Positions 10,983-27,015 of a stretch of 64,000 bases of DNA are shown in pieces. The number at the start of each line of letters is the position of its first letter. Positions within the stretch are counted from its first letter, which is position 1. The stretch is from a virus, in IMG/VR virus record IMGVR_UViG_3300013947_000003, positions 32,923-96,922 of that record; one strand, 5' to 3'. Below the pieces are notes generated by a model, which searched no databases, was not told the origin of the DNA, and worked only from the letters and a program-made list of their open reading frames with translations. Both the position numbers and the translations under genes were made by a program.

Positions 10983-11007
10983 ATATCTTTCAACTTTAAA
11001 TTTTATA

Positions 11008-11015: not shown

Positions 11016-11061
11016 TCATATAATAAACAAATACACAACATAATAATTATTTTATTAACTA

Positions 11062-13299: not shown

Positions 13300-13348
13300 T
13301 TAATACCAGTTTTATTATTTCTTGTATTATATATAAATCAAACTTTTT

Positions 13349-14093: not shown

Positions 14094-14103
14094 AAATAAT
14101 AAA

Positions 14104-14130
14104 TTAAAAAAGCCTCTCAACTGAGAGGCT
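14104..14130 (-). terminator. Rho-independent terminator
   Basis: Hairpin agcctctca/tgagaggct followed by a T-run on the minus strand. Confidence 0.6.
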
Positions 14131-14137
14131 TTGTCCT

Positions 14138-15148: not shown

Positions 15149-15149
15149 A

Positions 15150-15407
15150 TTATTCTTCTGCTTGAGTTTCTTCTTTTACAGGAGTCATAATCTCAACAAT
15201 CTCCTTAACACACTTATCTACAAATTCCTTATCAAAGCTAATTTCATTTTCAATTACCTTAAAAAGATAATCAAGACGCTTAAAAAGAGTAGTAGTGCTA
15301 AATTGTTGAAGTTTATTATATAATGCATTATTATCCTGCTGAAGCTGTTCTGCAACTGCTTTAAGTTGTTCGTACGTAAGCTCCTTTACTTCTTTATTAT
15401 CTTCCAT
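15150..15407 (-). CDS. Hypothetical 85-aa coiled-coil protein
   Basis: Intact track ORF. Confidence 0.5.
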   Translation of the reverse strand: MEDNKEVKELTYEQLKAVAEQLQQDNNALYNKLQQFSTTTLFKRLDYLFKVIENEISFDKEFVDKCVKEIVEIMTPVKEETQAEE

Positions 15408-15410
15408 TGC

Positions 15411-15641
15411 TTATAAAGTATTATTTAAATATTTAAATCCGTATTTATTTTTATAAAGAGTTTCCCACTCTTTAATATTTAATTCTCCTGTATCTGTTCC
15501 TCCACAGTTATCACAGTATACAAGATCGTCTAAGCCCATTCTGAGTATCCTTAAAGACAAGCATTTCTTACAGTATACAACAGGTTCCTCATCATACTTT
15601 GTAGGCTCCTTGAATTCTAAAGTATCAATTGGTTCCTCCAT
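15411..15641 (-). CDS. Zinc-ribbon protein (CxxC...CxxC)
   Basis: CKKC..CDNC in a 76-aa ORF. Confidence 0.5.
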   Translation of the reverse strand: MEEPIDTLEFKEPTKYDEEPVVYCKKCLSLRILRMGLDDLVYCDNCGGTDTGELNIKEWETLYKNKYGFKYLNNTL

Positions 15642-15801
15642 CTTTATAGTATACTAATATAAAACTACCATTTTCTTTGACTAAAGATACTATGTCTTCT
15701 CTTTTAACATTTAGGTTATTTGCTTTTACTACCAACTATCGAATATTAGTTGCAGATATGGCAGTCATAACCTTTCCATCTTTAACCATAGGTTCCATCA
15801 T
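15625..15801 (-). CDS. Hypothetical 58-aa protein with in-frame TAG
   Basis: ATGATG start at 15801, TAG 15736-15738 in frame, TGA 15625-15627. Confidence 0.45.
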
Positions 15802-15980
15802 TTCTTTATTTTACCGCCTGAAGCCATCTTCATAGCATTGGCTCTTCTTTCTAATGCTGCTGCTTGTGCTTTAGCGGCCTTAATAGCAGCATTCTTTCTA
15901 CTAGGACTATTCATAATTTCCTAGTATTGTGCTAATGTATGAGCATCACTTTCAGCTTGCCATTTTTTATCAATTTTCAT
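15798..15980 (-). CDS. Hypothetical 60-aa protein with in-frame TAG
   Basis: ATG 15980, TAG 15921-15923 in frame, TGA 15798-15800 in an ATGA overlap. Confidence 0.45.
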
Positions 15981-16159
15981 CTTTTTACACTTATTTTATT
16001 AAGTTCATCATAGAAATTTAGTACAAACTACTCATTTTCTAGTGAGTGTATTTCTATAATTTTATCTATAAAGTTAAGATCGTCTAGTATAGCCAGCATG
16101 GCATGTTTAAGATATTCAATACTGGGCTTATTAAAATTATCAAGAATAGTCTGTTCCAT
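15977..16159 (-). CDS. Hypothetical 60-aa protein with in-frame TAG
   Basis: ATG 16159, TAG 16028-16030 in frame, TGA 15977-15979 in an ATGA overlap. Confidence 0.45.
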
Positions 16160-16173
16160 AATATTAAATTTAG

Positions 16174-16246
16174 TCGCCCCACTCAGAGTCGAACTGAGAT
16201 CTTCAGATTTAGAGTCTGTAGTAATAAACCGTTATACTATAGGGCA
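16174..16246 (-). tRNA. Amber-suppressor tRNA, anticodon CUA (reads UAG)
   Basis: Minus-strand sequence tgcccta ta gtataacggtttattac t acaga CT-CTA-AA tctga agat ctcag ttcgact ctgag tggggcg a. Cloverleaf with a canonical T-loop. The anticodon corresponds to plus-strand tag at 16210-16212. Confidence 0.75.
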
Positions 16247-16250
16247 TTAA

Positions 16251-16484
16251 TTAAAATATATATTTATACATTAGTATATAAAAAGCAACTGCTAAGAACT
16301 GCCCTACTATGCCCCCTGCTAATGTCATTAAAATATCCAGTTCGTCAAATTTATTTCCATATTGCTTGTCTTTAAATTCCATTCCTATGGCCAAGCCTAA
16401 TACAAATAATATTGTGCCAATAAATCCTGCAGGTATTGCATAAAAGAAATGTTTGTTCCTGTTACTTTCCGTAAACCAACTCAT
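16251..16484 (-). CDS. 77-aa membrane protein
   Basis: Intact ORF with two or three hydrophobic segments, sandwiched between tRNA genes. Confidence 0.45.
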   Translation of the reverse strand: MSWFTESNRNKHFFYAIPAGFIGTILFVLGLAIGMEFKDKQYGNKFDELDILMTLAGGIVGQFLAVAFYILMYKYIF

Positions 16485-16497
16485 AATATTTATTTTT

Positions 16498-16564
16498 TGC
16501 GGTTCCTAGTAGATTCGAACTACTATCTTCCATTTCAGGAGTAATACCATTATACTAAGGAACC
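16498..16564 (-). tRNA. tRNA-like element with truncated anticodon arm (pseudo-tRNA?)
   Basis: The acceptor (ggttcct/aggaacc), D-arm and T-arm (agtag ttcgaat ctact) are good. Only 16 nt (tcctgaaatggaagat) lie where about 22-23 nt are expected. Confidence 0.4.
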
Positions 16565-16644
16565 AAGCTCCCTCCTTCCGTCTTCTCAGATTAAGGGAGG
16601 TTATTGTACAAATTAACAACAATTAAACATCTTTCCACCGTGTG

Positions 16645-16716
16645 TCTCCCCAGAAAGACTCGAACTTTCAATGTGGGATTAGAAATCCCAAGTTATATCC
16701 CTTTAACTATGGGGAG
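16645..16716 (-). tRNA. tRNA-Arg (anticodon UCU)
   Basis: ctcccca ta gtta aagggata taac t tggga tt-TCT-aa tccca catt gaaag ttcgagt ctttc tggggag a. Confidence 0.8.
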
Positions 16717-16782
16717 CTTAATCAGAGTATTAAGATGCCACAAAGTAAAGTATAATATTTTAATTATACAAATATTTTAACA

Positions 16783-16968
16783 TTATTTAAGATTATTATT
16801 TATTTCATTGCTTAATTGTTTCATTTGTTCTTGGGTATTATCTATTCCGCCCCCATCAGCAAATTTATTATAAGTTTCTTTAATACTATTTACATCCCTA
16901 AGACCACTCTGAACACCAAGACGTATTATAATAGCCCTATCTCTCATTGGTAAGTTTTCCCAAGCCAT
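16783..16968 (-). CDS. Hypothetical 61-aa protein
   Basis: Intact track ORF. Confidence 0.4.
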   Translation of the reverse strand: MAWENLPMRDRAIIIRLGVQSGLRDVNSIKETYNKFADGGGIDNTQEQMKQLSNEINNNLK

Positions 16969-16975
16969 ATATATA

Positions 16976-17014
16976 TTAAAATTAAAGGGTATAGGGTTAA
17001 AGCCCCATACCCTT
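16976..17014 (-). terminator. Terminator-like hairpin
   Basis: aagggtataggg/ccccataccctt hairpin downstream of the 17020 gene, followed by T-rich sequence on the minus strand. Confidence 0.4.
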
Positions 17015-17019
17015 ATATA

Positions 17020-17592
17020 TTATTGAATATTTACAAAATCTATCATTAAAAATTCTTTATCAGTGCCTTCCTCTATATTCTTTTTATTATTAAACTTAGC
17101 ATATATCCAAGGCCACCAATCATCTAAATAAGTCCCTGTACATGGAGTACCTAGAGTATTGTTAGATGAATACTTATCCTCATAAGTAGGATTATGTTTA
17201 AATTCATAAACTACTGTCCAAGACTCTTTGTCAATACCTCCACAGAACTTTACTCTAGGATACTTTTTTACTAAAGTATCACAGTAATGCTGAAAGAGTT
17301 GTATATCCTCTTCATCTAATTTCCTTTCTAGAACTAGTCTAACATAACAATTTCTTTTCTTATTAAGGAAGTCTAAGAATGTTTCTATATCTCCTTTATA
17401 AGCCATAAGACCATGCCTTATTTCTACATTAAAATCCCTATCAAAACTAATCCTAAAATCAAAAAATCTAATACCTAGCTTATACTGCTCCTCTATAGAT
17501 TTACTTTGACACCTTGCTACAAATCTAAAAGGATATAGATACCATTTCTTAGGAGGTAAATATGTTAGAGAATTGTGTGATGCTATGATCAT
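17020..17592 (-). CDS. PI-PLC X-domain-like (PLC-like phosphodiesterase) protein
   Basis: ASHNSLTY..GIRFFDFRI..EIRHG resembles the catalytic His/Arg motifs of PLC-like phosphodiesterases. TAA stop. Confidence 0.5.
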   Translation of the reverse strand: MIIASHNSLTYLPPKKWYLYPFRFVARCQSKSIEEQYKLGIRFFDFRISFDRDFNVEIRHGLMAYKGDIETFLDFLNKKRNCYVRLVLERKLDEEDIQLFQHYCDTLVKKYPRVKFCGGIDKESWTVVYEFKHNPTYEDKYSSNNTLGTPCTGTYLDDWWPWIYAKFNNKKNIEEGTDKEFLMIDFVNIQ

Positions 17593-18353
17593 CTTATAAT
17601 AATATTTTTTGTAGAAAATCCTTCTTTTATTTGTACTTTAGGAAGTATTGTAACTGTATAATCATACCCGATGCCATTACATATAGCATTTGGATTGGTT
17701 TCTGTAATATAGAATGTTTCTCTTCCTGTAGTATAATTTGCTAGATCCTAGCATTCTGTACTTATACTATAACCTCCAGAACTTTCTGTAAACTGATCAG
17801 ATGTGGTTAAAGTTGCTACAGTACTTAGTACACCTATATTAAAATCTGGGGAATATGAGTTATAATATAAAAATGAATATTTATTACTAAATAATTCAGT
17901 CCTACTTAATATTAAATTTGGAGAAGTGTCTTTTTGGTAGTCTAGAAGATTTTTATAAGAATCATTATGATCTGGTACCCCTATATAAACATTTGCTGTA
18001 AGTTTTACTCCTTCAGGGAAATCATTTCTTAATACCTGTATACCCCGATATATTCTAAAATTATCACCTTCTACATTGCCTGCCAGCATCCCCGAATAAT
18101 TGTCAGCAAAGGGAAGATTTGAAGTGTCAGTACTTGGAATAACAGTTTTAAAGTAATCACCTATTACAACAGTATATATATCATCTTTATCTATATAATA
18201 AACAGGATCAGTAATAGCAAAATTGGCTTTTGGGCTATCATCTCCAATACTATCAAGAACTTCCCAATACTTCAAATTATTCTTCTGCTCTTCAAGACTA
18301 CCACCACCAGAGACAATAGTCTTACCATTTCTTTTACCTATAATATGTTTCAT
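17589..18353 (-). CDS. 254-aa virion-module protein; TAG read through
   Basis: Track ORF 17748..18353 ends in TAG. The same frame continues for 52 codons to TGA 17589-17591, which overlaps the next ATG (ATGA). Confidence 0.6.
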
Positions 18354-18415
18354 CTTTTACTTAATTTTAAGCATATTATTAGCGTTCCTATTAATCAACC
18401 TTTATTATAAAAATT

Positions 18416-18700
18416 AGAGATTATAGAGAGACCTGCCCCACTTTTCGCCAAATTGGGAGCCTGGCATAGGTAATTATAGCCCTTGGGGCGTTTATATAAT
18501 ATTAGTCTACCTCTCTTATCTCTAGCTTCCATTTACCTCTGCCCTACTACTAGTACCCTTTATTCTCCTAGGTTGGCCGGAAGACCCGCAGACTATAATT
18601 ACCTCATCTCTAACACTCTATGGTGTTTAAAGGCTATGTGATTAACAGTACTTGACCGTTCACTTCTTATAAGAAGCACTGCAAAGTTACATAAAATATT
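18416..18700. ncRNA. Candidate structured RNA or regulatory element in the divergent intergenic region
   Basis: No ORF. Richer in G+C than the flanks. Perfect 12-nt inverted repeat aggtaattatag (18469-18480) / ctataattacct (18592-18603). GCCCCA (18434-18439) / TGGGGC (18484-18489). Hairpin cttcttat/ataagaag at about 18663-18678. Confidence 0.3.
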
Positions 18701-18832
18701 TTTAAAAAACAAACTATTAATAAAATCCTAATAATACTATTAATGAAAAATGTTCAATGTTTAGAATATTAACACTTATTAAATTTCTTTTCTAGAGTAG
18801 TTAAAATATGTATATCACTGTTAATAATTTAA

Positions 18833-19026
18833 TTTTTTATTTTTTATATTTGTAAGGATGTGGAGGGTAAAATAATAAAAATTTTTATACTTATAGGAAT
18901 GAGGTATTTTAATTTTTTATATCTGTAAAATGGAGTATTCTAAGTTTATAAAAATAAAAGTTTTTTATTTGTAAAGATGGGGGCATTTTTAAATTTTTTA
19001 TATATTTATATAAACGAGGTATTATT
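18833..19026 (+). repeat. Five degenerate tandem repeats (about 33-47 bp), consensus TTTTTTATATnTGTAAAGATGGRGGTATTTT
   Basis: Copies start near 18841, 18878, 18913, 18961 and 18994. Some contain TAnnTTTG-like boxes (tatatttg). Confidence 0.55.
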
Positions 19027-19029
19027 ACC

Positions 19030-19042
19030 CACTCCTCCCCAC
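19030..19042 (+). repeat. Left copy of the 13-nt direct repeat CACTCCTCCCCAC
   Basis: An exact copy recurs at 25122-25134. Confidence 0.45.
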
Positions 19043-19480
19043 CCCTGGCGAGCCAGGGGGATATCCCCCGGGGGGCTATATATCACAGTAGTCCCAACAT
19101 GGCCCATACAGCCGAACATTGCTGCTATGGCCCAATTAATGCTTGCTAGTGTTCACTCAACTTCAGGAGTGAGGGAGCTGACCTATTCAGCCTTATAATT
19201 AACATGTTTCACTTAAAAACCATATAGGATATGAAAACAAAGCATTTCCTTATGGGGGCAAAGCAATAATTGCCTCAGCATTATTCTTTGCTGGGGCAAT
19301 TGCATATGTCTTCATCATTTGGACATCCTCCAAAGATGAGGACTAATGCCCCATGTTGGGTTGCCAACACCCAACGTATGTAGATAAAATTGGCCAACAT
19401 TATTCATTCTCCCCATCTCCTCTTTTTATTATTAACCCAAACCTTCACACTGGGAATATAGTCTATCTAGACTGGTTAAA

Positions 19481-19969
19481 GTGTATAAAAAAATGCGATA
19501 TATGTGGACGATAGAAAATGGGTACGGCCTGCTGCAAAAATGCAGCAATGCTGCAACCCTAGAAGGGGTCTTCACAGAAATTTTAGAAGAGATCCGGGAG
19601 CACTTTATAGTGTGCTCTATATGGACATCGTTTAGCGACAGGTATCCTATAAGGATACCTTTCACGGCAACTTCACTCCTCGGCGAATACTTCGCCGGGG
19701 AGGTGGTATATGATAAGGCGGAAAACCGCCTCATCATATATGAGGATGAATATTCTGCCCCCTCTAAAGAGGTGGCAAGACGGTGGTGCGAGGGGCCCAC
19801 CAAACCCAAAGAGTTGCTCTTATATTGGAGCAACTCTCCATTTAGGGCAGATGTGCAGAGGGCCTACAGCCACACAGCTCTCTGTGTGGCATTCCTGGCC
19901 ACGGGGGAAGTGGCCTCCTCATACGAGGAGGCGTGGAATATTGTTAGAGAGGCTGCTGAGCAGTCTTAA
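19481..19969 (+). CDS. Island hypothetical protein (162 aa)
   Basis: Track ORF followed by a hairpin. Confidence 0.5.
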   Translation: MYKKMRYMWTIENGYGLLQKCSNAATLEGVFTEILEEIREHFIVCSIWTSFSDRYPIRIPFTATSLLGEYFAGEVVYDKAENRLIIYEDEYSAPSKEVARRWCEGPTKPKELLLYWSNSPFRADVQRAYSHTALCVAFLATGEVASSYEEAWNIVREAAEQS

Positions 19970-20290
19970 CAATATCCCCAGGATGAGCTCAAGAGCGATT
20001 GAATAAAAGGCCCTACAAAGCCTTTTACTTCACTCTTGAGTTCACCAAAGGTGGGTGGCCTGTTGGGTTTGTAGGCACCCCAACATTAGACAAAAACCTA
20101 CAGCACACTGCTCCCTCAGTAATATTCTATGCCCTCCATTAATTGGTTGTAGCCCTCAGTTTGCATATTGTATTATATATATGTAAACTTCTCTTTAGTT
20201 ATGCATAGTTTCAGGTCATTCTTATCCATAGAATGGCTTGTTACTAATGCTGTATGTCTCGTTGATTTATTAACTCTTAACCTCAAAGAT

Positions 20291-20599
20291 ATGGAGTTAC
20301 ATAATTATACTCCTCACACAATCTCTTTGAATAATGGCACACAGTTCCCCTCTGAAGGGTTGGCTCGTGTGGCCAATACATTCACAGAGTTTGTGGAAGG
20401 TATCTGTGAGGTACACTTTGGAGACATCCAAGGACTTCCTGAGCCTCAGGAAGGTGTCCTGTATATAGTGTCTGCACTTGTATTGTCTGCAGCTAAGGCT
20501 GCTGGCCGTACAGATTGTGTGGCACCTGCGACAGGACATCCTGATTGCATCCGTGATGCAAAAGGATTTATCCTGAGTGTGCCTGGCTTTGTTCGATAG
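20291..20599 (+). CDS. Island hypothetical protein (102 aa from the internal ATG)
   Basis: In frame with track ORF 20168..20599. The ATG at 20291 is the first one after the AT-rich leader. Confidence 0.5.
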   Translation: MELHNYTPHTISLNNGTQFPSEGLARVANTFTEFVEGICEVHFGDIQGLPEPQEGVLYIVSALVLSAAKAAGRTDCVAPATGHPDCIRDAKGFILSVPGFVR

Positions 20600-20714
20600 A
20601 ATAGAGCCTTCACGGAGTTTTCACCTTGCAAAATAATGGGAGTTTTGTAAGGGCTTTCCTTGGCAACAGAATAAAGCCAGGTTCCCATAATGTTTAATTC
20701 ATAATATTATAATA

Positions 20715-20960
20715 ATGTTAGCATTGTTACAATATAATGAAAGCGAGGTCTATAGCAGCAGCCTCTTTCTTAACAAAGAAGAGGCTAAACTGCAATTCGC
20801 CAAGCTCAAAGAAGAGTTTGCCAAAGAGGAAGGCAATACCTTCGAAGAACTTGGTGAGGGCCATTTTACATGGTGTTCTTGGGACAGCCTGGAATTCCAA
20901 TATGTAAAATTGGTGGACCTCGGTCCCTCCTTAAGGGAATACTTTGGAGTAAACCTTTGA
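20715..20960 (+). CDS. Island hypothetical acidic protein (81 aa)
   Basis: Track ORF. Hairpin actttggg/cccaaagt follows. Confidence 0.5.
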   Translation: MLALLQYNESEVYSSSLFLNKEEAKLQFAKLKEEFAKEEGNTFEELGEGHFTWCSWDSLEFQYVKLVDLGPSLREYFGVNL

Positions 20961-21163
20961 GAACTTTGGGTTTATGCTTTCCCAAAGTATAGATAAAAAA
21001 GCACAATATTAAAAAACTTATATCCCTATGAGTTTCTTTTATTAAAAGTTTTAGATTAGGGACCTTGTTTTAATCTCGGTTTCACACCACTATATTATAT
21101 AGTGTGTTATAGTGGTGGCTTTATTAAAGTATATCACACACTACCACCAAAACATATACATCT

Positions 21164-21310
21164 ATGGAAACATTTGATGTTATGTGCCTCCTAACAGTAT
21201 TGCTTATAATAGCAATTCTGGGAGGCATTGTGTTCCTCCTAGAGGCCACCCCACTGTGGAAGAAGTTTCAAAACTTCATTCTCCACATATGGGGTGGAGA
21301 GGAAGACTAA
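21164..21310 (+). CDS. Island small membrane protein (48 aa)
   Basis: METFDVMCLLTVLLIIAILGGIVFLL.. has one TM segment. Below the track length cut-off. Confidence 0.45.
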   Translation: METFDVMCLLTVLLIIAILGGIVFLLEATPLWKKFQNFILHIWGGEED

Positions 21311-21426
21311 CTCACTCTCCTCTCTCCTCACCTCTACTCCTCATTCACTTAATTCTAACCAAAACCTCCCAGGTAGTAAGGGTGTATTCCCAAGCTTATA
21401 AAGCTGTTAAGACCTGTTCAAAAATC

Positions 21427-21816
21427 ATGACAAAATTTAATTTTGCTTACAATCGTCTTCGTGAAGCCTACATGGCATTCACACACAGCCGTTCGTACAA
21501 CTCCTTTCAGGCATGGTATAATGAGTGCCACTACATAGATTGGGTGTGGGGGTATTATGGGGGAATTTTCGAAAGGGCGGACTACTATAGTAGTCCGCAA
21601 AAAGAAAGAGCGCAGAGGGAGTGGGAGAGCTTCCTCCTAAGGACCGCTAAGATATTTGATATCTTAGCGGACTGCACAGACTGGCACGAATCTGTGCCGT
21701 ACTTCTATAAGAACGGAGACCCAGAGGCGACTCTCCGTCAATTCTTCCCAGAACTGGAAGAAGCAGACAGAATAAAGAGGGAATCCTCTTTAGGGAAGGA
21801 CTACTTCCCATTCTAA
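21427..21816 (+). CDS. Island hypothetical protein (129 aa)
   Basis: Internal ATG of track ORF 21184..21816. The 5' part of that ORF overlaps the small TM gene. Confidence 0.5.
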   Translation: MTKFNFAYNRLREAYMAFTHSRSYNSFQAWYNECHYIDWVWGYYGGIFERADYYSSPQKERAQREWESFLLRTAKIFDILADCTDWHESVPYFYKNGDPEATLRQFFPELEEADRIKRESSLGKDYFPF

Positions 21817-21898
21817 TACTCCTAGAAAAAAACTAGTACCCCTAGAGTTTCTACATGAGTAGTTTTAAATAGGGGTTTCACTTAAATCCTATAAAACA

Positions 21899-22186
21899 AT
21901 GAAAAAAGGATTTTATGAGTTCAAAGAAGAACTCCTTCAGCAAATAGATGCTGAAATAGAAAATGCACCTCAACAGTCAATAACTGTTGAGGAATTTGAG
22001 GAATACCTCAACATCCACAATAAAGTAACTAAGTGTGTTGACACCATAGGGCTACTAAAGCTAGCCCAAACCTTTTACAGGACACGCTTGTTTAGTGTTT
22101 GTAGTACCCCGGACTCCCCAACAACGTCTTCCATAGAGTACTATCTGGGGAAGCTCCAAGAAGTAAGGAGGGAGCTTTATGGATGA
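21899..22186 (+). CDS. Island hypothetical protein (95 aa)
   Basis: Track ORF that overlaps the next gene. Confidence 0.55.
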   Translation: MKKGFYEFKEELLQQIDAEIENAPQQSITVEEFEEYLNIHNKVTKCVDTIGLLKLAQTFYRTRLFSVCSTPDSPTTSSIEYYLGKLQEVRRELYG

Positions 22187-22442
22187 GAGGCTCTATGAGT
22201 TATTGTTGGATTTGACAATCCACATGGCTCAAAGGAGATTCGATCAAAGGATCTCCAAAAGAGATCTCTCTACATGGGATCTCTATGAGATATATGAGGA
22301 GCTAGACCTCCTCTATAACATGAAACGCACTGAATGGCCTACATTAGTGCGCCTTTCAAAAAAGTACATTGTGTACTTATTAAACCAAGAAGGGACAGAT
22401 AAACTGTTCTTTAAGTCCCTCCTGCAAAACCTAAAAGTATGA
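22179..22442 (+). CDS. Island hypothetical protein (87 aa)
   Basis: Track ORF with an ATGA overlap to the next gene. Confidence 0.55.
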   Translation: MDERLYELLLDLTIHMAQRRFDQRISKRDLSTWDLYEIYEELDLLYNMKRTEWPTLVRLSKKYIVYLLNQEGTDKLFFKSLLQNLKV

Positions 22443-22681
22443 GCGAATACTGGGAATGTCTCCAAAAGGATATCAAGGAGACCAAAGCAGCTGTGGAGGA
22501 CCTCAACAAACATCTTGAGAAAATCCGCCGTCTAAAAAGAGCTACTCCACAAGAACACGTGGAGAAACAAGAGGAGTTAAAACAAATAGAGCGAGAGCTC
22601 TCTAATGACCTAGACTACTATGAGTTGAAACTCCAAGACCTCACAAAAGAAGAGTGTATGTACGAGTACTTCTGCTCTTAA
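22439..22681 (+). CDS. Island hypothetical coiled-coil protein (80 aa)
   Basis: Track ORF. Hairpin cttggtgggc/gcccaccaag follows. Confidence 0.55.
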   Translation: MSEYWECLQKDIKETKAAVEDLNKHLEKIRRLKRATPQEHVEKQEELKQIERELSNDLDYYELKLQDLTKEECMYEYFCS

Positions 22682-22777
22682 AATCTGAGCAATTCACTTG
22701 GTGGGCTTAAATAGTATGGGCCCACCAAGGCTTTGTATAAGTCAACACATACTACCACATCTAAAACTTATAATACA

Positions 22778-22981
22778 ATGGAAAAGTTTTCAGATGACCC
22801 TATTTGGGTAACAAAAGATGGAGTTAAACTCCATCTTTCTGAGATGTCAACCAGGCATCTCATTAACAGTTTAAACCTTCTAAGGATTAACTGTGGGTGG
22901 AGAGAGCGCTTTGTAGTTCCCATGCTTCGGGAACTTAAAAGGCGTAACATGTTATTTGACTGGTGGTTCTATAATCTCTAG
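22778..22981 (+). CDS. Island hypothetical protein (67 aa), ends in TAG used as stop
   Basis: Internal ATG of track ORF 22733..22981. Confidence 0.5.
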   Translation: MEKFSDDPIWVTKDGVKLHLSEMSTRHLINSLNLLRINCGWRERFVVPMLRELKRRNMLFDWWFYNL

Positions 22982-23054
22982 TTAGCATAGAACTAATACC
23001 TTCCTAAGTTCTCAAGTTCTTAAAGGGAAGGTTCACTTAAAACGCATAACAACA

Positions 23055-23339
23055 ATGGAAAACAAAACAAATGGAAGGTGTTTAGCTATCATAGATAGCA
23101 TCACCTATAATCTTAGGATGCTAGTAGCCACACCGAAACATCCTAATGGAGGTGTATTCTATGTGTGGGCAGCAATACAAGCCCACTATCCATATGAGGT
23201 ACACTTCATTACAGAGTACCAAGGGATGTACCTTGTAGATCCTCGGGTACTCTGCAAAGCAGATAGGAGTACCATAGATAATATGGAACTAGAGGCTAAA
23301 AGCCTTAGAATCTTAGTATACGAACAAAAAATAAAATAA
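23055..23339 (+). CDS. Island hypothetical protein (94 aa)
   Basis: Track ORF. Confidence 0.55.
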   Translation: MENKTNGRCLAIIDSITYNLRMLVATPKHPNGGVFYVWAAIQAHYPYEVHFITEYQGMYLVDPRVLCKADRSTIDNMELEAKSLRILVYEQKIK

Positions 23340-23376
23340 TATATAACACTCTAACTAAAGCTTGTAGGCTGCTCTA

Positions 23377-23691
23377 GTGTGGAACCTTCAAATAATTATG
23401 AACATACAGCGTTCCTTCACACTTCTTATCTACTCCATCCTGGCAAATAAGCCCCACACACTCTTTGCAGATAGCTTATATCCTGTTAGAGGGATGGCTT
23501 TTAAACAAGGAGGCCACCTCTATACCTCAAAGATACATCTGGGGTATATGTTCTACCTAAGCACCCCATACTCAAATGGTAGGTGCTTTGACCTGCTTGT
23601 AATAAGGCAGGGAGAGCAGGTTGATGAACACTGGGGAATAGTGCTTCCCGTAGACACTTTAAAATCTATTATCAATTACCTAAAATACTAA
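23377..23691 (+). CDS. Island hypothetical protein (start uncertain; alternative ATG 23494)
   Basis: Track ORF. Confidence 0.45.
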   Translation: MWNLQIIMNIQRSFTLLIYSILANKPHTLFADSLYPVRGMAFKQGGHLYTSKIHLGYMFYLSTPYSNGRCFDLLVIRQGEQVDEHWGIVLPVDTLKSIINYLKY

Positions 23692-23702
23692 CCACCAAAA
23701 CA

Positions 23703-24161
23703 ATGAAGTTAATAATCCGGCTTCAAAGTAACGTGAATACGTTGCTTACAAACCATTCCCTAGATGGGAAAAGGTTTCATAATCATGTGGTTTTCTATCT
23801 TAACCTTCATAAAAAGATAGAGCAAAACAGATTCAATCTGTTTAAGACGGCGCTTGTTAATAAACTTAACAGGTGCTGTCCTGAGTTTGAGGATGTATCC
23901 ATCAAGCAGGTTAAACACCATGCTTATGATGGGGCAAAAACAATTAACCTCAAAAACCAGCTTTGGGCACTAAATGCCGCAAGTGAGGAATATATGCTAG
24001 AGTTAGTTCTCAAATACATCGTCGATATACTGCGCCTTAATTGTACGCTAAGCAACTATGAAGGCATTGGCGAAAAAGCCTTTATAATAGCAGATACAGA
24101 TGATAACATGTTTGAGTATATACTCAATACATATAAAAACGGGGTCATTATAGACGCCTAG
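23703..24161 (+). CDS. Island hypothetical protein (152 aa), TAG stop
   Basis: Track ORF. Confidence 0.55.
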   Translation: MKLIIRLQSNVNTLLTNHSLDGKRFHNHVVFYLNLHKKIEQNRFNLFKTALVNKLNRCCPEFEDVSIKQVKHHAYDGAKTINLKNQLWALNAASEEYMLELVLKYIVDILRLNCTLSNYEGIGEKAFIIADTDDNMFEYILNTYKNGVIIDA

Positions 24162-24186
24162 TATCTGTAATCAAATATCTAAAATA

Positions 24187-24363
24187 ATGGATAAAGAAAA
24201 GAGGCTTGAAGAGCTGCGGTTTGATATAATGCGGCAAGAACTTATCAGTGGATACCTAAATGAAAGACTGATAGAAGTATCAAAGAAACTCAAAGAACTG
24301 CGTAAAGAAGAAGATGACCTTGAAAGGCAAATCTTCGAAGAACTTGAAGCAGAAGAATACTAA
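24187..24363 (+). CDS. Island hypothetical coiled-coil protein (58 aa)
   Basis: ATG 24187 to TAA 24361-24363. Below the track cut-off. Confidence 0.4.
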   Translation: MDKEKRLEELRFDIMRQELISGYLNERLIEVSKKLKELRKEEDDLERQIFEELEAEEY

Positions 24364-24548
24364 ACCATCCTATATAATAGTGCCCTTGAGGAGTAAAATC
24401 CTTGAGGGCATTATTTTTTTCTGCCCGCTTGCGCGTGCAAGTCACTCTTTCCCATGCATGGAAGGCAAGGTTGCCAATGAGAGGTTCAACCACCTTCCAC
24501 ATCTTTTCACTTAAAACCTTATGGTGTATAGGTTAACCGTATACTGTT

Positions 24549-24836
24549 ATGTCTAAGTCAATTCTTAGCGGCAAAGTTTATGCAGGTTCTTGGAATCTCG
24601 ACTCCACTGAAAACCTCAGCCAAGAGGAACTCAATGCCTTCGAGAAGGCCACGGTGGTAGATTCCATGTATGGACTTTCTTGCTGCTTTCTAATGCATAG
24701 CGGCGAGAAGATCTACGTCCCCATGGCCACCCAAAGTGGGGCCAAAGCAGGGGATGTCCTTGACTTGCACACCATGAAGAAACTCACCCTCTCCAAATCA
24801 GGAGAGGAAGATATTCTTCGTATCATGGAGGGATAA
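24549..24836 (+). CDS. Island hypothetical protein (95 aa)
   Basis: Track ORF, the last gene before a strong terminator. Confidence 0.55.
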   Translation: MSKSILSGKVYAGSWNLDSTENLSQEELNAFEKATVVDSMYGLSCCFLMHSGEKIYVPMATQSGAKAGDVLDLHTMKKLTLSKSGEEDILRIMEG

Positions 24837-24861
24837 TTAAACCCCCTCCTTCCGCTCTACA

Positions 24862-24901
24862 TACCCTCCTGGGAATTATTCCTGGGAGGGTATTTTTTTT
24901 T
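24862..24901 (+). terminator. Rho-independent terminator ending the island operon
   Basis: taccctcc...ggagggta hairpin followed by T9. Confidence 0.7.
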
Positions 24902-24984
24902 CAGTCACCTCTCTCATCTAAGTTTCCATTACTATTTATTAATCTATATTAACATTAATTAATAGTAATAACATTACTTTATAT

Positions 24985-25054
24985 TGGTATATTACCAATT
25001 ATACCATACTTTTTATTGGTTTATTACCAATTTATACTATTGGTATGTTACCAA
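24985..25054. promoter_or_regulatory. Three copies of a 15-bp palindromic operator-like site, TTGGTA-N3-TACCAA
   Basis: ttggtatattaccaa (24985-24999), ttggtttattaccaa (25016-25030), ttggtatgttaccaa (25040-25054). Confidence 0.55.
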
Positions 25055-25121
25055 TTTTATCACAACAACCTCACTATATGTGTGGGTTATGTTGTTGAAT
25101 ATCAGTGAGTTACAGATGTCC

Positions 25122-25134
25122 TCACTCCTCCCCA
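25122..25134 (+). repeat. Right copy of the 13-nt direct repeat CACTCCTCCCCAC
   Basis: Exact match to 19030-19042. Confidence 0.45.
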
Positions 25135-25258
25135 CAGTTGGTGGTGCACCGAGTAACTTATAAAAAATCAAAAGGATAAGTTAAATTATAGCTTTTTTTA
25201 CCCGCTATTAATTCTCCTCCTTTTTGGTTTTTTATTTGCACACCTTAAAATTTATATA

Positions 25259-25266
25259 TAATTTTG
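25259..25266 (+). promoter_or_regulatory. Bacteroidota-type -7 element TAATTTTG
   Basis: Ends about 10 nt before the tRNA-Leu 5' end. Confidence 0.45.
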
Positions 25267-25276
25267 TATAAAATAA

Positions 25277-25362
25277 GCCCTTATGATGGAATTGGTAGAC
25301 ATGAGAGACTTAAAATCTCTTGGCCATTATTGGCTGTGTGGGTTCGAGTCCCACTAGGGGTA
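25277..25362 (+). tRNA. tRNA-Leu (anticodon UAA), type II with long variable arm
   Basis: gccctta tg..aattggtaga.. agaga ct-TAA-aa tctct, variable arm tggccattattggctgtg, T-arm tgggttcgagtccca, 3' strand taggggt a. Collinear with bacterial tRNA-Leu(UAA). Confidence 0.8.
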
Positions 25363-25394
25363 CAATTAACAGTATTAACTTAAAACTAAACAAA

Positions 25395-25859
25395 ATGGAG
25401 TACATTTACAAGATGACTTTAGTGGCAGGTGGAACCACTATCTGTACAAGAAAAGTAAGAACAAAAGAAGAAGGTGAATTTCAAGCAAAAGAAATTCTAA
25501 AAAACAGACAAGATGTAGTAAAAGTGGAATACTATATCAAAGAAGGAGAAAAAAATAAATGTAATCCTTCGAAAGAAGAAAAAGTATATAACTACATACT
25601 CAAAACGTACTCACAGTTATACGAAACTCCCCTTAAAAAATACCCTAATGTATCTACATTAGCGGTTTTTGGTGCTACATCTAAAATAGTAGATGATATA
25701 GAGAGCTATCTTAATATATCTTTTAATGGAGATAGGACATCTTTAGAAGAAGGAGCTCTCTTCATACGCAAACATATAGAAGACCTCTATAATGCAATAG
25801 AAAAGTATAAAATGGACCTCTATAATGCCGACATAGTCGATATTATAGACACATATTAA
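25395..25859 (+). CDS. Hypothetical 154-aa early protein
   Basis: Internal ATG of track ORF 25320..25859, whose 5' part overlaps tRNA-Leu. Confidence 0.5.
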   Translation: MEYIYKMTLVAGGTTICTRKVRTKEEGEFQAKEILKNRQDVVKVEYYIKEGEKNKCNPSKEEKVYNYILKTYSQLYETPLKKYPNVSTLAVFGATSKIVDDIESYLNISFNGDRTSLEEGALFIRKHIEDLYNAIEKYKMDLYNADIVDIIDTY

Positions 25860-26025
25860 ATGACGTCCTACTTTCTTGTAGGAACATGTACTATGTTACA
25901 GCAGTACTAAAAAAGTCCCAGAAGATGTTGGTGACAAAGCAACCTTCTTAAAATCTATCTGCTACATCGACACTTTGTCCGTATGAGATGTATGATAGAG
26001 GTTAGAGACAATTGGTACTCTAACA

Positions 26026-26122
26026 GACTATATAGTTTATGTGTTAAAACATTCTTATATTACCTATGTGAAAAGTGCATGGGGTTATAAGAAAGAAGTA
26101 AGTTCGCAACTTACTGTAGTCG
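26026..26122 (+). tRNA. tRNA-like element A: canonical acceptor, D and T arms but 32 nt between the anticodon-stem halves
   Basis: gactata ta gttt atgtgtta aaac a ttctt [atattacctatgtgaaaagtgcatggggttat] aagaa agaa gtaag ttcgcaa cttac tgtagtc g. The insert can form an extra helix, cctatg/catggg. Confidence 0.45.
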
Positions 26123-26141
26123 CACTTCATTTTGTAATAAT

Positions 26142-26261
26142 AGGTATATAGTTTAACTAAAGTAAAACACCATTACAGTCTATTTTTAGAGTGTTAGTTT
26201 GATTTTTTGTTGGCCATTGTTTTCAGTAATGGAGATATAGGTTCAAATCCTATTATACCTT
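26142..26261 (+). tRNA. tRNA-like element B: possible tRNA-Glu(UUC) with a 44-53 nt insertion in or next to the anticodon arm
   Basis: aggtata ta gttt..aaac a ccatt [53 nt] aatgg agat atagg ttcaaat cctat tatacct. ccatt is duplicated (26170, 26214). The second copy gives the arm ccattg ttTTCag taatgg. Confidence 0.45.
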
Positions 26262-26321
26262 CTATATAAGTATCGTTTTTAGATTGTTAAAACTAGTGGT
26301 ACGTGAGTATAGCTAGTATAT

Positions 26322-26395
26322 GGTCCTTTAGCTTAGTTGGTTAGAGCACCTGACTCATAATCAGGGAGTCGTAGGTTCAAGCCCTACAAGGACCA
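26322..26395 (+). tRNA. tRNA with anticodon CAU (elongator Met or Ile2)
   Basis: ggtcctt ta gctt agttggtta gagc a cctga ct-CAT-aa tcagg gagtc gtagg ttcaagc cctac aaggacc a. Confidence 0.85.
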
Positions 26396-26441
26396 CTTCA
26401 TTGTATTGTTGGTTTTAAGTGAAACAATTGGTTATTAACCA

Positions 26442-26509
26442 GGCTCTTTAGTTTAATGTAAAACATTCTATAGTATAGAAAGATGTAGGGTCATATCCTA
26501 CAAGAGCTG
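26442..26509 (+). tRNA. tRNA-like element C with a 15-nt anticodon arm and non-canonical T-loop
   Basis: ggctctt ta gttt aatgta aaac a ttcta tagta tagaa agat gtagg gtcatat cctac aagagct g. Confidence 0.35.
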
Positions 26510-26567
26510 CAAAAATTAAGTGTTTTATAACATTTTGATTAACATTTTGGTCATATTCACTTATTTT

Positions 26568-26606
26568 ACCTTGCGGTTCGTGAGAATAGCAAGGTTTTAT
26601 TTTTTA
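26568..26606 (+). terminator. Rho-independent terminator after the tRNA cluster
   Basis: accttgc/gcaaggt hairpin followed by tttatttttt. Confidence 0.6.
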
Positions 26607-26625
26607 ACTTAAAACACAAAAGATT

Positions 26626-26814
26626 ATGGAAAAATGGATAATTAAATTAAGTAATAACGCATTTGCTTATATAGCAAATAACACCTTATATATCAAATAT
26701 AACTTTGAAGAAGCATCTATGTTTGATACTATAGGTGATGCATGGAAAGCTGCAATATTTGTAAACAAATTGCTAAATACAAATGCTGTAGCAGTATCTT
26801 ACTATGTACATTAA
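26626..26814 (+). CDS. Hypothetical 62-aa protein
   Basis: Track ORF. Confidence 0.45.
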   Translation: MEKWIIKLSNNAFAYIANNTLYIKYNFEEASMFDTIGDAWKAAIFVNKLLNTNAVAVSYYVH

Positions 26815-27015
26815 AGAAAGGAAATTCTATAAATCACTGTTTGGTATATTACTATAAATATACCAGAAGAGTTAACTTCTTTAAAAAATCTCTAGCAGAT
26901 AGTTCATGCAGTAAGGTGTGAGGGCTCAACTCCCTAGAAGAAAACATAGTAGAGGAGTTTTCGATAAATTGTTTTAAAATCTACTATCTCGAATATTCAT
27001 TTAAAATTAATATAT

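Follow-up and report, generated by a model that had tools for sequence, protein, structure and literature searches.

A G+C-rich, cassette-swapping block of 14 small genes between the late and replication genes of a phage

The early operon of crAss001 occupies the genomic position that corresponds to the block described here (PMC8375218). In phi14:2 the equivalent early operon is rich in early ncRNAs. Our block lies in a 64,000-nucleotide stretch of DNA from an AT-rich, crAss-like gut phage (the window), between minus-strand late genes and a helicase/DnaB/primase module. These neighbours bear out the initial annotation, which had placed the block at the late/early divergence point.

More distant Asinivirinae lack the block. 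In the one close relative available, IMGVR_UViG_3300045988_177920 (the relative; helicase 90% identical at the amino acid level), the block is found again, at the same place and of the same composition (6.7 kb, 34-48% GC). We consider it reasonably likely that the block is the phage's own fast-changing, first-expressed gene set and not an inserted element.

Anatomy of the block

The block and its edges consist of the following features, in window coordinates. For each gene the first coordinate is its ATG; orthologs are those in the relative.

18834..19025 (+): AT-rich, promoter-like repeat array of 4-5 tandem units (TTTTTTATaTTTGTAaaGATGgGG; repeat families D2, D3, D8), putative promoters
19028..19205 (+): GC-rich non-coding leader containing the left 13-mer (folding, pair conservation, conserved core)
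19030..19042 (+): left CACTCCTCCCCAC copy, exact match; the relative has CACTCCCCCCCAC at the equivalent place
19493..19969 (+): gene 1, 158 aa, ORFan; homologs only at 85% identity or more, same lineage
20291..20599 (+): gene 2, 102 aa, Crn4b-like (profile, AF2, Foldseek), strain-variable cassette, TAG stop
20715..20960 (+): gene 3, 81 aa, ORF; no family match
21164..21310 (+): gene 4, 48 aa, single transmembrane helix; ortholog 83% identical, dN/dS 0.09
21427..21816 (+): gene 5, 129 aa; ortholog 47% identical, dN/dS 0.16; no family or PDB match
21899..22186 (+): gene 6, 95 aa; hairpin plus GTTTCACTTAAAT immediately 5'
22179..22442 (+): gene 7, 87 aa; ortholog 68% identical, dN/dS 0.34
22439..22681 (+): gene 8, 80 aa, coiled-coil-like; ortholog 80% identical, dN/dS 0.14; 13-bp hairpin downstream (22697-22729)
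22778..22981 (+): gene 9, 67 aa, TAG stop; ortholog 67% identical, dN/dS 0.35
23055..23339 (+): gene 10, 94 aa, hairpin plus GGTTCACTTAAAA 5'; ortholog 75% identical, dN/dS 0.14
23398..23691 (+): gene 11, 97 aa; ortholog 77% identical, dN/dS 0.28
23703..24161 (+): gene 12, 152 aa, ORFan, TAG stop; sole match among 1.84 billion representatives is itself
24187..24363 (+): gene 13, 58 aa, helical; 17-bp hairpin downstream (24376-24415)
24549..24836 (+): gene 14, 95 aa, hairpin plus TTTTCACTTAAAA 5'; ortholog 93% identical, dN/dS 0.06
24861..24901 (+): strong intrinsic terminator closing the block, 15-bp stem (7 GC pairs) and T8 run; kept in the relative
24975..25056 (no strand): three palindromic sites ATTGGTAtATTACCAAT (repeat family D1), past the terminator and ahead of the next promoter
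25123..25135 (+): right CACTCCTCCCCAC copy, exact match; the relative has CACTCCCCTCCAC
25235..25363 (+): promoter-like site TTTGCA-16-TATAAT, TAATTTTG at 25259, then tRNA-Leu(TAA)

All 14 small plus-strand ORFs are present and use the standard code. The TAG stops at 22979 and 24159 are as first described, and there is a third at 20597. The view that none of the genes carries a recognisable motif holds for 13 of them but fails for gene 2, which is Crn4-like. No integrase, transposase or recombinase is found among the 14 ORFs, and gene 1 has no Pfam or PHROG match. Gene 14, the best-conserved gene of the block (AF2 model too poor to use, pLDDT 48), has homologs only at 93% identity or more, one of them named Crassvirales sp. 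Among billions of proteins, genes 1, 12 and 14 have no relatives beyond this phage lineage, which makes three of the four genes tested lineage-confined ORFans.

The genes are coding and conserved. Ten orthologous pairs with the relative have dN/dS values of 0.06-0.54 and dS values of 0.28-1.0, apart from the poorly aligned gene 5 at 2.9. These dS values are comparable to that of the helicase (0.77). Hence the block is not recent; it has co-diverged with the phage and is ancestral in the lineage.

On the left, the repeat array terminates directly 5' of the block in a -10-like TATTAT (19020-19025), part of a promoter-like match TTTATA-17-TATTAT at 18997-19025. The array, which also contains a single exact TAnnTTTG (18845), may serve as a promoter. 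The leader that follows folds with an MFE of -66.5 kcal/mol (z = -3.7), and none of 200 shuffles is equally stable. Over four sequences, 49 pairs are 99% paired, with two compensatory and five one-sided changes. The leader probably forms a structured RNA with which the early transcript begins. In cr116_1 and in three IMG/VR phages, all without the block, the leader core CCCCACCC...GGGGATAnTCCCC likewise stands where the early region starts.

On the right, the strong terminator proposed for the end of the block is indeed there. The palindromic sites beyond it, of which the relative also has three similar ones, could be operator- or iteron-like. The promoter-like site and tRNA-Leu open the next, AT-rich transcription unit.

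Cassette exchange and the Crn4-like gene

The block is a cassette-swapping hotspot. The gene 1 cassette (19491-20147) is swapped for an unrelated 233-aa gene in three assemblies (L001, L003, L012), and genes 12 and 13 (23696-24370) are swapped for a 77-aa gene in five (L011, L012, L014, L015, L016). Breakpoints fall either 2-8 nt 5' of ATGs or 8-17 nt past stops. Units of a hairpin plus TT(C/A)ACTTAAAA are kept in the relative. The AT-rich genes just downstream (25.4-27.5 kb) share this upstream motif, which is therefore not confined to GC-rich genes. Between L011 and L012 the block is 96.6% identical and the adjacent replication module 99.5%, a roughly 7-fold excess of divergence in the block. 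Nearly all alternative cassettes and relative-specific genes are GC3-enriched (0.24-0.52, mostly 0.36 or more).

One of the strain-variable cassettes holds gene 2. Crn4 is already characterised, and its homologs in phages have been put forward as anti-CRISPR proteins (PMC12830947). The gene 2 family profile matches the Crn4b structure PDB 9r7b with E = 0.011; gene 2 has the catalytic T-x-H motif, its N-x-T-P-H being aligned with the catalytic T/H. Structure prediction gives a Crn4 fold at pLDDT 97. Foldseek returns Crn4 entries only (9r7b with E = 6.5e-7 and TM 0.68; next match E > 3). Gene 2 is a Crn4b-like putative ring nuclease and a candidate anti-type III CRISPR, or anti-cOA, enzyme, and its protein may be enzymatically active.

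The family has more than 460 homolog clusters, occurs in prophages and many MAGs, and in some cases adjoins the repressor/cro switch of Prevotella pallens prophages. Other phages and prophages carry relatives 65-78% identical, which are GC-rich in every case; one is in a 96-kb phage with 43-53% GC from the same study.

Composition and codon usage

A compositional step of this size is far from what chance would give. Successive 1-kb windows from 19001 to 25000 have GC contents of 0.46, 0.41, 0.40, 0.41, 0.39 and 0.40, vs 0.30 at 18001-19000, 0.30-0.33 at 25001-27000 and about 0.26-0.35 in the remainder of the 64 kb. Overall, GC is 39-46% over the span from 19.0 to 24.9 kb and about 30% on either side. 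The 14 block genes have a GC3 of 0.467, whereas late genes have 0.21 and a set of 19 replication-module genes has 0.197. Windowed GC and codon usage thus both set the block apart, and the abrupt shift from AT-rich to G+C-richer DNA reported initially is real. The relative repeats the pattern: its entire block has a GC3 of 0.42 vs 0.18 in its replication genes, and the block orthologs have GC3 of about 0.33-0.57 in both phages, vs 0.20-0.22 for the helicase.

The GC excess is mostly synonymous (GC1/GC2/GC3 of 0.49/0.33/0.47 in the block and 0.40/0.31/0.20 in middle genes). However, the non-coding DNA of the block is GC-richer too (0.39 vs 0.30), and hence codon selection alone is insufficient to explain everything. 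Terminator-like hairpins are enriched in the block (15 vs 6.1 +/- 2.7 in shuffles). A composition like that of a Bacteroidales chromosome, as first suggested, is not supported: block codon usage is rich in AGG (40% of Arg codons), CTC and GGG, and correlates at only r = 0.2-0.3 with Prevotella pallens, the one Bacteroidales sample compared.

Compared with middle and late genes, the block is most depleted in three codons, ACT, TTA and AGA. They are the cognates of the phage tRNA-Thr(AGT), tRNA-Leu(TAA) and tRNA-Arg(TCT); for three of 30 A/T-ending codons this gives P = 0.0002. In the relative, TTA and ACT depletion replicates and AGA is weakly depleted (0.47 to 0.38). Avoidance of phage-tRNA codons fits a host-adapted pool and selection equally well. 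The late and RNAP genes use TAG as a sense codon, and three block genes use it as their stop.

Origin of the block

The window contains just two exact copies of the 13-nt repeat CACTCCTCCCCAC, at 19030-19042 and 25123-25135 (the second copy was originally placed one nucleotide off, at 25122-25134). The pair was read as an att-like or target-duplication scar of a recently captured host or mobile-element segment. The abrupt GC step, the repeat lying some 100-250 nt from both compositional boundaries, the distant Asinivirinae without the block and the presence of the gene 2 family in prophages and MAGs all speak for such an insertion, be it an integrated mobile element or a recent site-specific capture from a host chromosome or plasmid. 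Yet the repeat itself is not beyond chance: 43% of Markov shuffles of the 7.3-kb region have some repeated 13-mer, the same region has a second, unrelated exact repeat (a 14-mer), and the figure of 0.01 expected copies applies to this specific 13-nt word only. Its placement near both boundaries is notable but was seen post hoc. Since block-less phages keep the core of the leader in which the left copy is embedded, this copy is native sequence and marks no junction. The right copy lies 220 nt past the terminator in AT-rich native sequence, in a conserved non-coding patch of about 60 nt that is about 100 nt 5' of the tRNA-Leu promoter-like site. In the relative each copy is changed at a different base, and the two differ at two positions. 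Neither copy has a tRNA-like structure, and the related phages compared include no empty site with a single 13-mer. Together with the missing integrase, transposase and recombinase, the helicase-like dS, the ORFans 1, 12 and 14 and a donor search that found no match for the block DNA in phage or plasmid collections, this makes insertion very improbable. What stands of the foreign island is a compositionally distinct, lineage-specific block. A chimera of phage and unrelated GC-richer DNA has only the compositional step in its favour and can practically be dismissed, because the block has the same phage surroundings in 16 or more independent assemblies. The left junction is crossed by L001 and L013 and the right one by L011 and L012. 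Different projects contributed the crossing assemblies (SRR1747023, SRR1747045, ERZ26859173 and others); the related-species IMG/VR genome spans both junctions.

A more serious alternative, although we regard it as unlikely, is history instead of selection: the block would be a recombination sink that imports cassettes from GC-richer phages and prophages of the same hosts, with incomplete AT decay. The GC-rich gene 2 relatives, the swaps between strains, the GC-richer intergenic DNA and GC and AT skews unlike those of the remaining genome point this way. On the other hand, most genes are ORFans for which no donor can be detected, and orthologs resident for a dS of about 0.5-1 still have GC3 of about 0.45-0.55 in both lineages. 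Polymorphism in the block (81 GC>AT vs 99 AT>GC) reveals no AT-ward decay, but the flanks have similar ratios (57 vs 89 and 10 vs 16), which leaves selection and history indistinguishable by this measure. The block could also have had an ancestral GC3 near 0.6 and still be decaying in both lineages. It is improbable that a region-specific mutation or repair bias without selective role, such as GC-biased gene conversion fuelled by the hotspot's frequent recombination, or a property of first-injected, heavily transcribed DNA, is the cause. Such a bias would agree with the mosaic block, its sevenfold divergence and the GC increase in coding and non-coding DNA alike. However, the rise is concentrated at codon positions three and one with GC2 unchanged, the late-gene region is as diverged between the window and L001 and yet AT-rich, and biased gene conversion has no direct evidence in this phage group.

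In our preferred reading, the phage's own first-expressed gene set, the unit runs from the promoter-like array through the structured GC-rich leader and the 14 genes to the strong terminator. Its position suggests early timing. Gene content is renewed by ORF-precise cassette replacement in conserved linkers of hairpin, TT(C/A)ACTTAAAA and ATG. In type III CRISPR, and perhaps also in cA3-based CBASS, the gene 2 protein would break down the cyclic-oligoadenylate alarm signals. The higher G+C is mainly a different synonymous-codon regime, for which selection and host adaptation may be responsible. Because A/T-ending phage-tRNA codons are avoided and TAG is used only as a stop, a naive host could translate the block genes. 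This translation would precede the making of phage tRNAs and the amber suppressor, and the AT-rich middle and late genes would depend on the phage tRNAs.

An early anti-defence role was part of the initial annotation. The crAss001-operon position, the cassette swaps and the Crn4-like gene 2 favour it, with the timing read from position, and the block plausibly comprises first-expressed accessory and anti-defence genes. Codon usage often differs between early and late phage genes (PMC5683454), and in plasmid leading regions anti-defence genes occur together with codon adaptation (bioRxiv 10.1101/2025.04.03.647016). The replacement of cassettes in this block is much like that in the hyperplastic regions of T4-type phages.

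Composition and layout of the block

The base composition of the window changes as sharply as the initial annotation had noticed: GC content is 0.39-0.46 over 19001-25000, compared to 0.30 and 0.33 in the adjoining kilobases. The 14 plus-strand ORFs (genes 1-14), the hairpins and the terminator (24861-24901) are all present. The TAG stops at 22979 and 24159 are confirmed, and there is a further TAG stop at 20597. Most of the GC excess is synonymous. GC1/GC2/GC3 is 0.49/0.33/0.47 in the 14 block genes, 0.40/0.31/0.20 in 19 genes of the replication module and 0.40/0.33/0.21 in the late genes.

The block consists, in this order, of AT-rich tandem promoter-like repeats (18834-19025), a leader, the 14 genes with interspersed hairpins and the strong terminator.

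Non-coding features in and around the block
16173-16246, minus strand: amber-suppressor tRNA(CTA), among the late genes
19028-19205, plus strand: GC-rich non-coding leader, predicted fold of -66.5 kcal/mol (z = -3.7 relative to shuffled sequences)
19206, 21875, 23030, 24504, 25373 and 26602, plus strand, and 26413, minus strand: TT(C/A)ACTTAAAA sites; at 24504 the distance to the start codon is 32 nt
24975-25056: tandem set of three ATTGGTAtATTACCAAT palindromes, spaced by 32 and 24 nt, between the early terminator and the tRNA-Leu promoter; kept in the related phage IMGVR_UViG_3300045988_177920
26442-26510, plus strand: fifth tRNA, Thr(AGT), 44.9 bits in Rfam, found by ARAGORN only at a relaxed threshold

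The window phage is crAss-like. Its portal and terminase DNA is ~74% identical to that of cr116_1 (Pamirivirus) and to that of a Kolpuevirus. In the helicase, identity is 56-57% to IAS virus and cr116_1 and 46% to crAss001 (all Steigviridae/Asinivirinae). The late genes lie on the minus strand (1-18353), where the standard code splits them into short ORFs; ORFs of portal, terminase and RNAP size (535-1609 aa) appear only when TAG is read through. TAG is a sense codon in these late, structural genes and in the giant RNA-polymerase-like genes (53764-62452, plus strand). The replication genes (27.8 to 47 kb, plus strand) are intact in the standard code, which the block also uses. The amber-recoded Segatella copri crAss phage of a recent preprint is a different phage, with 101 kb, 36% GC and no suppressor tRNA.

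One late gene deserves a separate mention. The 190-aa protein encoded at 17020-17592 (minus strand; 92% in the related phage) weakly resembles the PI-PLC X domain (E = 0.024) and DUF1878 (E = 0.001), and may be a phospholipase-like late protein.

Age of the block and the 13-nt repeat

Genes 12 and 14 occur on 24 and 23 contigs in an exact-protein look-up, from several projects and always in the same phage context. The 16 such contigs that we compared to the window by BLAST are 93-99.7% identical to it. Two metagenome contigs (L001 and L013) extend past the left junction to the late genes, and two others (L011 and L012) extend past the right junction to the genes for helicase and DnaB. At the level of assemblies, an artefact is therefore rejected.

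The block is also found in a related species. IMGVR_UViG_3300045988_177920 (94 kb; helicase 90% identical in amino acids, 79-88% identity in nucleotides) carries a 6.7-kb block of ~34-48% GC at the same place. Ten genes of this block are orthologous to window genes, while several others differ. Ortholog dN/dS is 0.06-0.35 (0.54 for the 58-aa gene 13), and ortholog dS is 0.3-1.0 (2.9 for the poorly aligned gene 5), in the range of the helicase (0.77). Hence these are real genes that have co-diverged with the phage. Their GC3 is ~0.33-0.57 in both phages, compared to 0.20-0.22 for the helicase; over the relative's whole block GC3 is 0.42, versus 0.18 in its replication genes.

More distant relatives (cr116_1, IAS virus, crAss001 and eight metagenomic contigs, all with a helicase identity of at most 57%) have no homolog of any of the 14 proteins in their early regions. 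Other small genes occupy the position of the block. A comparable GC contrast was not found in these phages; cr116_1 has ~1 kb at 36-41%. Close relatives amount to one species in IMG/VR, and the nearest hit of a JGI metagenome scan has 57% helicase identity. Judged from these sequence comparisons, the block is ancestral within the lineage and absent outside it.

The initial annotation had taken the block for a foreign island of recent origin, bounded by an att-like scar. This reading is not supported: no integrase, empty site or donor of the block was found, and the block co-diverges with the phage. Pfam and PHROG searches of the 14 ORFs and both flanking genes return no integrase, recombinase or transposase, and the largest protein has 158 aa. 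The 13-mer that had suggested the scar does occur in two exact copies (19030-19042 and 25123-25135), but as a bare repeat it is unremarkable. Among Markov shuffles of 7.3 kb, 43% hold a repeated 13-mer, and an unrelated 14-mer is also repeated in the region. There is no third copy of the 13-mer in the window, even at one mismatch.

The left copy begins the GC-rich leader, the core of which is kept in phages that do not carry the block. Since this core is conserved at the start of their early regions, the left 13-mer is native phage sequence, and it lies approximately where the early transcript is predicted to start. The right copy is found 220 nt past the terminator in a conserved AT-rich patch, downstream of the three palindromes and ~100 nt upstream of the promoter-like site of tRNA-Leu. 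By this placement, neither copy sits at a foreign/native junction.

In the sole close relative, a single species, no empty site with one copy of the 13-mer exists: it has the block and both copies, which have drifted to CACTCCCCCCCAC and CACTCCCCTCCAC. Distant relatives have other early genes in that place and no 13-mer. Similar C-rich strings end tRNAs in crAss001 and in the sequence L032, and we therefore considered a tRNA 3'-end origin of the repeat. This origin is rejected, as neither copy lies within a tRNA-like structure in Rfam.

Capture of a host or mobile-element segment, also proposed initially, finds no donor. A DNA search with the whole block gave no match in 50,697 phage records and 72,556 plasmids. 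Genes 1 and 14 have homologs only within the lineage, at 85% identity or more (5.8 billion clusters searched), and gene 12 matches only itself among 1.84 billion representatives. Gene 2 alone has relatives outside the lineage. The supposed likeness to a Bacteroidales chromosome is not supported either: block codon usage is rich in AGG, CTC and GGG and correlates poorly with chromosomal and prophage genes of Prevotella pallens, the one Bacteroidales sample compared (r = 0.21-0.30).

Cassette exchange and a candidate ring nuclease

The block is old, and its content is exchanged. Between strains, a 233-aa gene stands in place of gene 1, a 128-aa gene in place of gene 2 and a 77-aa gene in place of genes 12 and 13. 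The breakpoints of these cassettes are either 2-8 nt upstream of an ATG or 8-17 nt downstream of a stop; several are at ORF boundaries but away from copies of TT(C/A)ACTTAAAA. When the same pairs of strains are compared, divergence in the block is ~7 times that in the replication module (96.6% versus 99.5% identity). Variable small ORFs thus cluster between conserved core modules, and their content differs between the two related species.

Just left of the block, the last late gene (17748-18353, minus strand, 201 aa) is replaced by an unrelated 311-aa gene in L001 and L013. The replaced segment, 17585-18252, is a second cassette-swap site and possibly a host-range determinant.

Searches with Pfam and PHROGs found nothing significant beyond gene 2 among the 14 block proteins, the products of both flanking genes and nine alternative cassette proteins. 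A PDB sequence search with genes 1, 5, 12 and 14 gave no match, and the AF2 model of gene 14, built from a shallow alignment, has a pLDDT of 48.

Gene 2 (102 aa) is more informative. It matches two PHROGs of unknown function and has more than 460 homolog clusters at 65-78% identity. Some of these homologs adjoin the CI-like repressor/cro switch of Prevotella pallens prophages, and one lies in another 96-kb phage. Pararheinheimera and Paenibacillus phages and an Altiarchaeum virus carry more distant homologs. In GTDB genomes, relatives are found in MAGs of many phyla, and hence they are uninformative on the host.

Both sequence and predicted structure relate gene 2 to Crn4, a ring nuclease of novel fold with essential His and Arg, of which Crn4b cleaves cA3 and cA4 (PMC12830947). 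A 43-member profile of gene 2 finds Crn4b in the PDB (9r7b, E = 0.011). Given this E-value and an identity to Crn4b of only 26%, gene 2 represents a divergent Crn4 branch. N5, T7, P8 and H9 are invariant in all 43 members, and the HMM alignment places TPH on the LTPH of Crn4b. The AF2 monomer model has a pLDDT of 97.3. All top seven Foldseek matches in the PDB are Crn4 structures (9r7b, 9sma, 9qs9; E 6.5e-7 to 4.4e-5, probability 1.00, TMq 0.56-0.68). The best of these is 9r7b (E = 6.5e-7, TM 0.68), and the first match other than Crn4 has E = 3.1.

Crn4 proteins are small beta-rich dimers, described as having no other structural neighbours; close to the N-terminus they have a conserved Thr and the catalytic His (T13/H15 in Crn4a, H17 in Crn4b), and their catalytic Arg is R112 in Crn4a and R103 in Crn4b (PMC12830947). 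In gene 2, R88 is invariant and R73 nearly so, and both lie near the expected distance for the catalytic Arg; the sequence alignment ends at residue 70. Phage and plasmid homologs of Crn4 have been proposed as anti-CRISPRs (PMC12830947). Based on the modelled fold and the Thr/His motif, we regard gene 2 as a candidate Crn4-like ring nuclease with a candidate role in anti-defence.

Proposed codon regime and candidate early signals

Why is the block GC-rich? GC3 is raised in nearly every occupant of the block, including alternative cassettes and genes found only in the relative (0.24-0.52, mostly at least 0.36, compared to 0.18-0.20 elsewhere). It is therefore a property of the region and not of one acquisition. 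The phage encodes sense tRNAs for Leu(TAA), Arg(TCT), Met(CAT) and Thr(AGT); the Thr tRNA has an unusual T-loop and a 4-bp anticodon stem, and its copy in the relative has a 2-nt insertion. Ranked by depletion in the block relative to middle (replication-module) and late genes, ACT comes 1st (0.51 to 0.14), TTA 2nd (0.47 to 0.13) and AGA 3rd (0.61 to 0.18). With 30 A/T-ending codons, three specified ones would take the first three places by chance with a probability of 0.0002. The depletion of TTA (0.45 to 0.14) and ACT (0.46 to 0.20) is replicated in the relative, that of AGA weakly (0.47 to 0.38).

Given the regional GC3 and the depletion of codons read by phage tRNAs, we favour a host-readable codon regime for genes that would be translated before phage tRNAs and suppressor accumulate. 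The non-coding DNA of the block is GC-richer too (intergenic GC 0.39, versus 0.30 elsewhere), which codon selection alone would not account for. It is possible that the GC content comes from continuing import out of a GC-richer phage gene pool, or that the block descends from an old GC-rich ancestor and is still decaying. Block polymorphisms show no AT-ward flux, with 81 GC>AT and 99 AT>GC changes polarised by outgroup and 142 and 154 by minority allele. However, the flanks behave similarly, and thus this test for amelioration does not discriminate between the readings.

The host-readable regime has analogies in other systems. Early and late genes have been found to differ in codon usage in phages (PMC5683454), and leading regions of plasmids combine anti-defence genes with codon adaptation (bioRxiv 10.1101/2025.04.03.647016). 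More speculatively, and with low confidence, we propose that codon composition may act as a second temporal gate beside stop-codon recoding. Selection would keep the early block, hypervariable and anti-defence, in the host-readable regime (GC3 0.47, TAG as stop, ACT, TTA and AGA avoided). Later genes would be AT-rich (GC3 0.20) and depend on phage tRNA-Thr, tRNA-Leu and tRNA-Arg, and late genes would also need the phage amber suppressor. The leader and the units of hairpin and TT(C/A)ACTTAAAA would then serve as early start or promoter signals of crAss type.

Among four sequences, 99% of the leader's 49 predicted pairs are kept, with two compensatory and five one-sided changes. Its core is CCCCACCC followed by a GGGGATAnTCCCC hairpin. 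In cr116_1 and in three other phages from IMG/VR (~96 kb or partial), this core is found where the early region starts, with a -10-like TATAAT immediately upstream. Leader copies lie in the window and in the phages L020 (3925-4057), L110, L111 and L112, carried by Asinivirinae that otherwise share no early genes. A search of 18.2-25.4 kb with Rfam, at gathering and permissive thresholds, returned tRNA-Leu only, and the leader matches no known RNA family. The leader is a candidate for a new phage RNA element or a transcription-start signal.

The second candidate signal is a repeated unit: a hairpin or tRNA, TT(C/A)ACTTAAAA, 11-13 nt and an ATG. It occurs at four block junctions and two further ones downstream, once behind tRNA-Leu. 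Every match to GTTTCACTTAAAA with at most one mismatch in the 64 kb falls within 19.2-26.4 kb. The relative keeps these units, and cr116-like phages have a similar ATTAAC.CTTAAAA ahead of their first early gene. The motif may serve as an early promoter, mark a processing site or act in translation. The ATTGGTAtATTACCAAT palindromes resemble the operators of a dimeric regulator or the iterons of an origin. A scan for the Bacteroidetes -7 motif TAnnTTTG is uninformative because the motif is not enriched in this AT-rich genome.

Two further observations concern the edges of the block. A conserved, GC-richer non-coding patch (18395-18650) lies upstream of the last late gene on the minus strand and downstream of a -7-like element TAACTTTG (18682-18689, minus strand). 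It has no Rfam match, is 98% conserved in strain L001 despite the replaced adjoining gene, and may be a 5' UTR or an ncRNA. In the relative, a gene for a 57-aa transmembrane protein follows immediately after the leader (L017, the relative's sequence, 227-400). In the window, 19232-19345 (plus strand) seems, by eye, to hold only a start-less remnant of a similar transmembrane segment, where L001 lacks 84 bp (window 19233-19316). This looks like decay of a gene at the block's head.

Significance and comparison with known systems

In the human gut, crAss-like phages rank with the most abundant viruses, and their early genes are almost entirely uncharacterised. The block is a probable early unit with clear limits, and it includes candidates for regulation: a leader RNA, an upstream motif in several copies and palindromes that resemble operators. 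Gene 2 adds a concrete anti-defence candidate and a large, previously unlinked Crn4-like branch common in gut phages and prophages, which suggests that type III CRISPR or cOA signalling puts real pressure on these phages. Two codon regimes in one phage genome map onto its own tRNA set, which bears on why phages carry tRNAs and on translation timing in recoded phages. The block also calls for caution: in a phage, an abrupt change in GC content flanked by a short repeat does not have to stem from a recent insertion. Compositional contrast and a short exact direct repeat near both ends are what the block has in common with att-flanked islands and prophage-like elements. Unlike these, it carries no integrase, its repeats are off the junctions, it is old and co-diverging, and most of its genes are donorless.

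For the early genes of crAss-like phages, phi14:2 is to our knowledge the sole system studied, and an early-promoter motif went undetected there. By its gene map, compared with the annotation of crAss001, cr116_1 and IAS virus, the block starts at the divergence from the late/structural module, upstream of the replication module. The view that it is a first-expressed set for anti-defence or host takeover gains support from this position, from its plasticity and from one identified gene; its timing is read from position. The early operon of crAss001 (gp104-gp96), switched on 0-10 min after infection (PMC8375218), has the same place, with small plus-strand genes before the helicase/DnaB/primase module. 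That of phi14:2 is transcribed by an injected, rifampicin-resistant virion RNA polymerase, with highly expressed early non-coding RNAs (bioRxiv 10.1101/2020.03.07.982082); the counterpart of these RNAs here would be the non-coding RNA-like elements at the start of the block. The leader core CCCCACCC...GGGGATAnTCCCC is common to the window phage and cr116_1-like phages. The early regions of crAss001, IAS virus and cr116_1 differ from the block in having neither homologous genes nor its GC contrast.

In the cr116_1-like phages (L020, 4058-4375 and 6209-6520; L028, L111, L112 and L033), a conserved protein of ~105 aa, MATTATTVGIKNSWSL..., comes first among the early proteins and has one or two paralogous copies; RefSeq does not annotate the L020 copy at 4058-4375. 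The window phage has no member of this family. Homology of gene 14 to the first early protein of cr116-like phages (MATTATTVGIKNSW...) is rejected, as BLAST gives no support.

With T4-type hyperplastic regions and their PeSL (promoter-early stem-loop) cassettes, the block shares a cluster of small, mostly ORFan genes between conserved modules, units of stem-loop and conserved motif between ORFs, and indels and replacements that break at ORF boundaries (PMC2839356, PMC4122927). It differs in phage order, host phylum and motif, TT(C/A)ACTTAAAA being no sigma-70 early promoter. Moreover, a strong GC3 contrast is not among the described PeSL features, and the breakpoints here are not all at the motif. 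Like the leading regions of conjugative plasmids, the block would be the first-expressed part of invading DNA, with anti-defence genes and a distinct, GC-richer, translation-oriented composition (bioRxiv 10.1101/2025.04.03.647016). In the plasmids, adaptation was measured against known hosts, whereas here it is deduced from complementarity to the phage tRNA set.

Gene 2 resembles Crn4b and viral ring-nuclease anti-CRISPRs such as AcrIII-1 in fold, Thr/His motif and small size, and its carriage by phages and prophages is typical of the proposed anti-CRISPR members of the Crn4 family (PMC12830947). Its branch of more than 460 clusters contrasts with the 11 of 28,137 phage genomes in which published HMMs detect Crn4 (PMC12830947). 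Taken together, the block combines known kinds: a crAss early operon, a hyperplastic accessory region and a viral ring nuclease. What is unusual is the strength of its codon partition, matched to the tRNAs of the phage.
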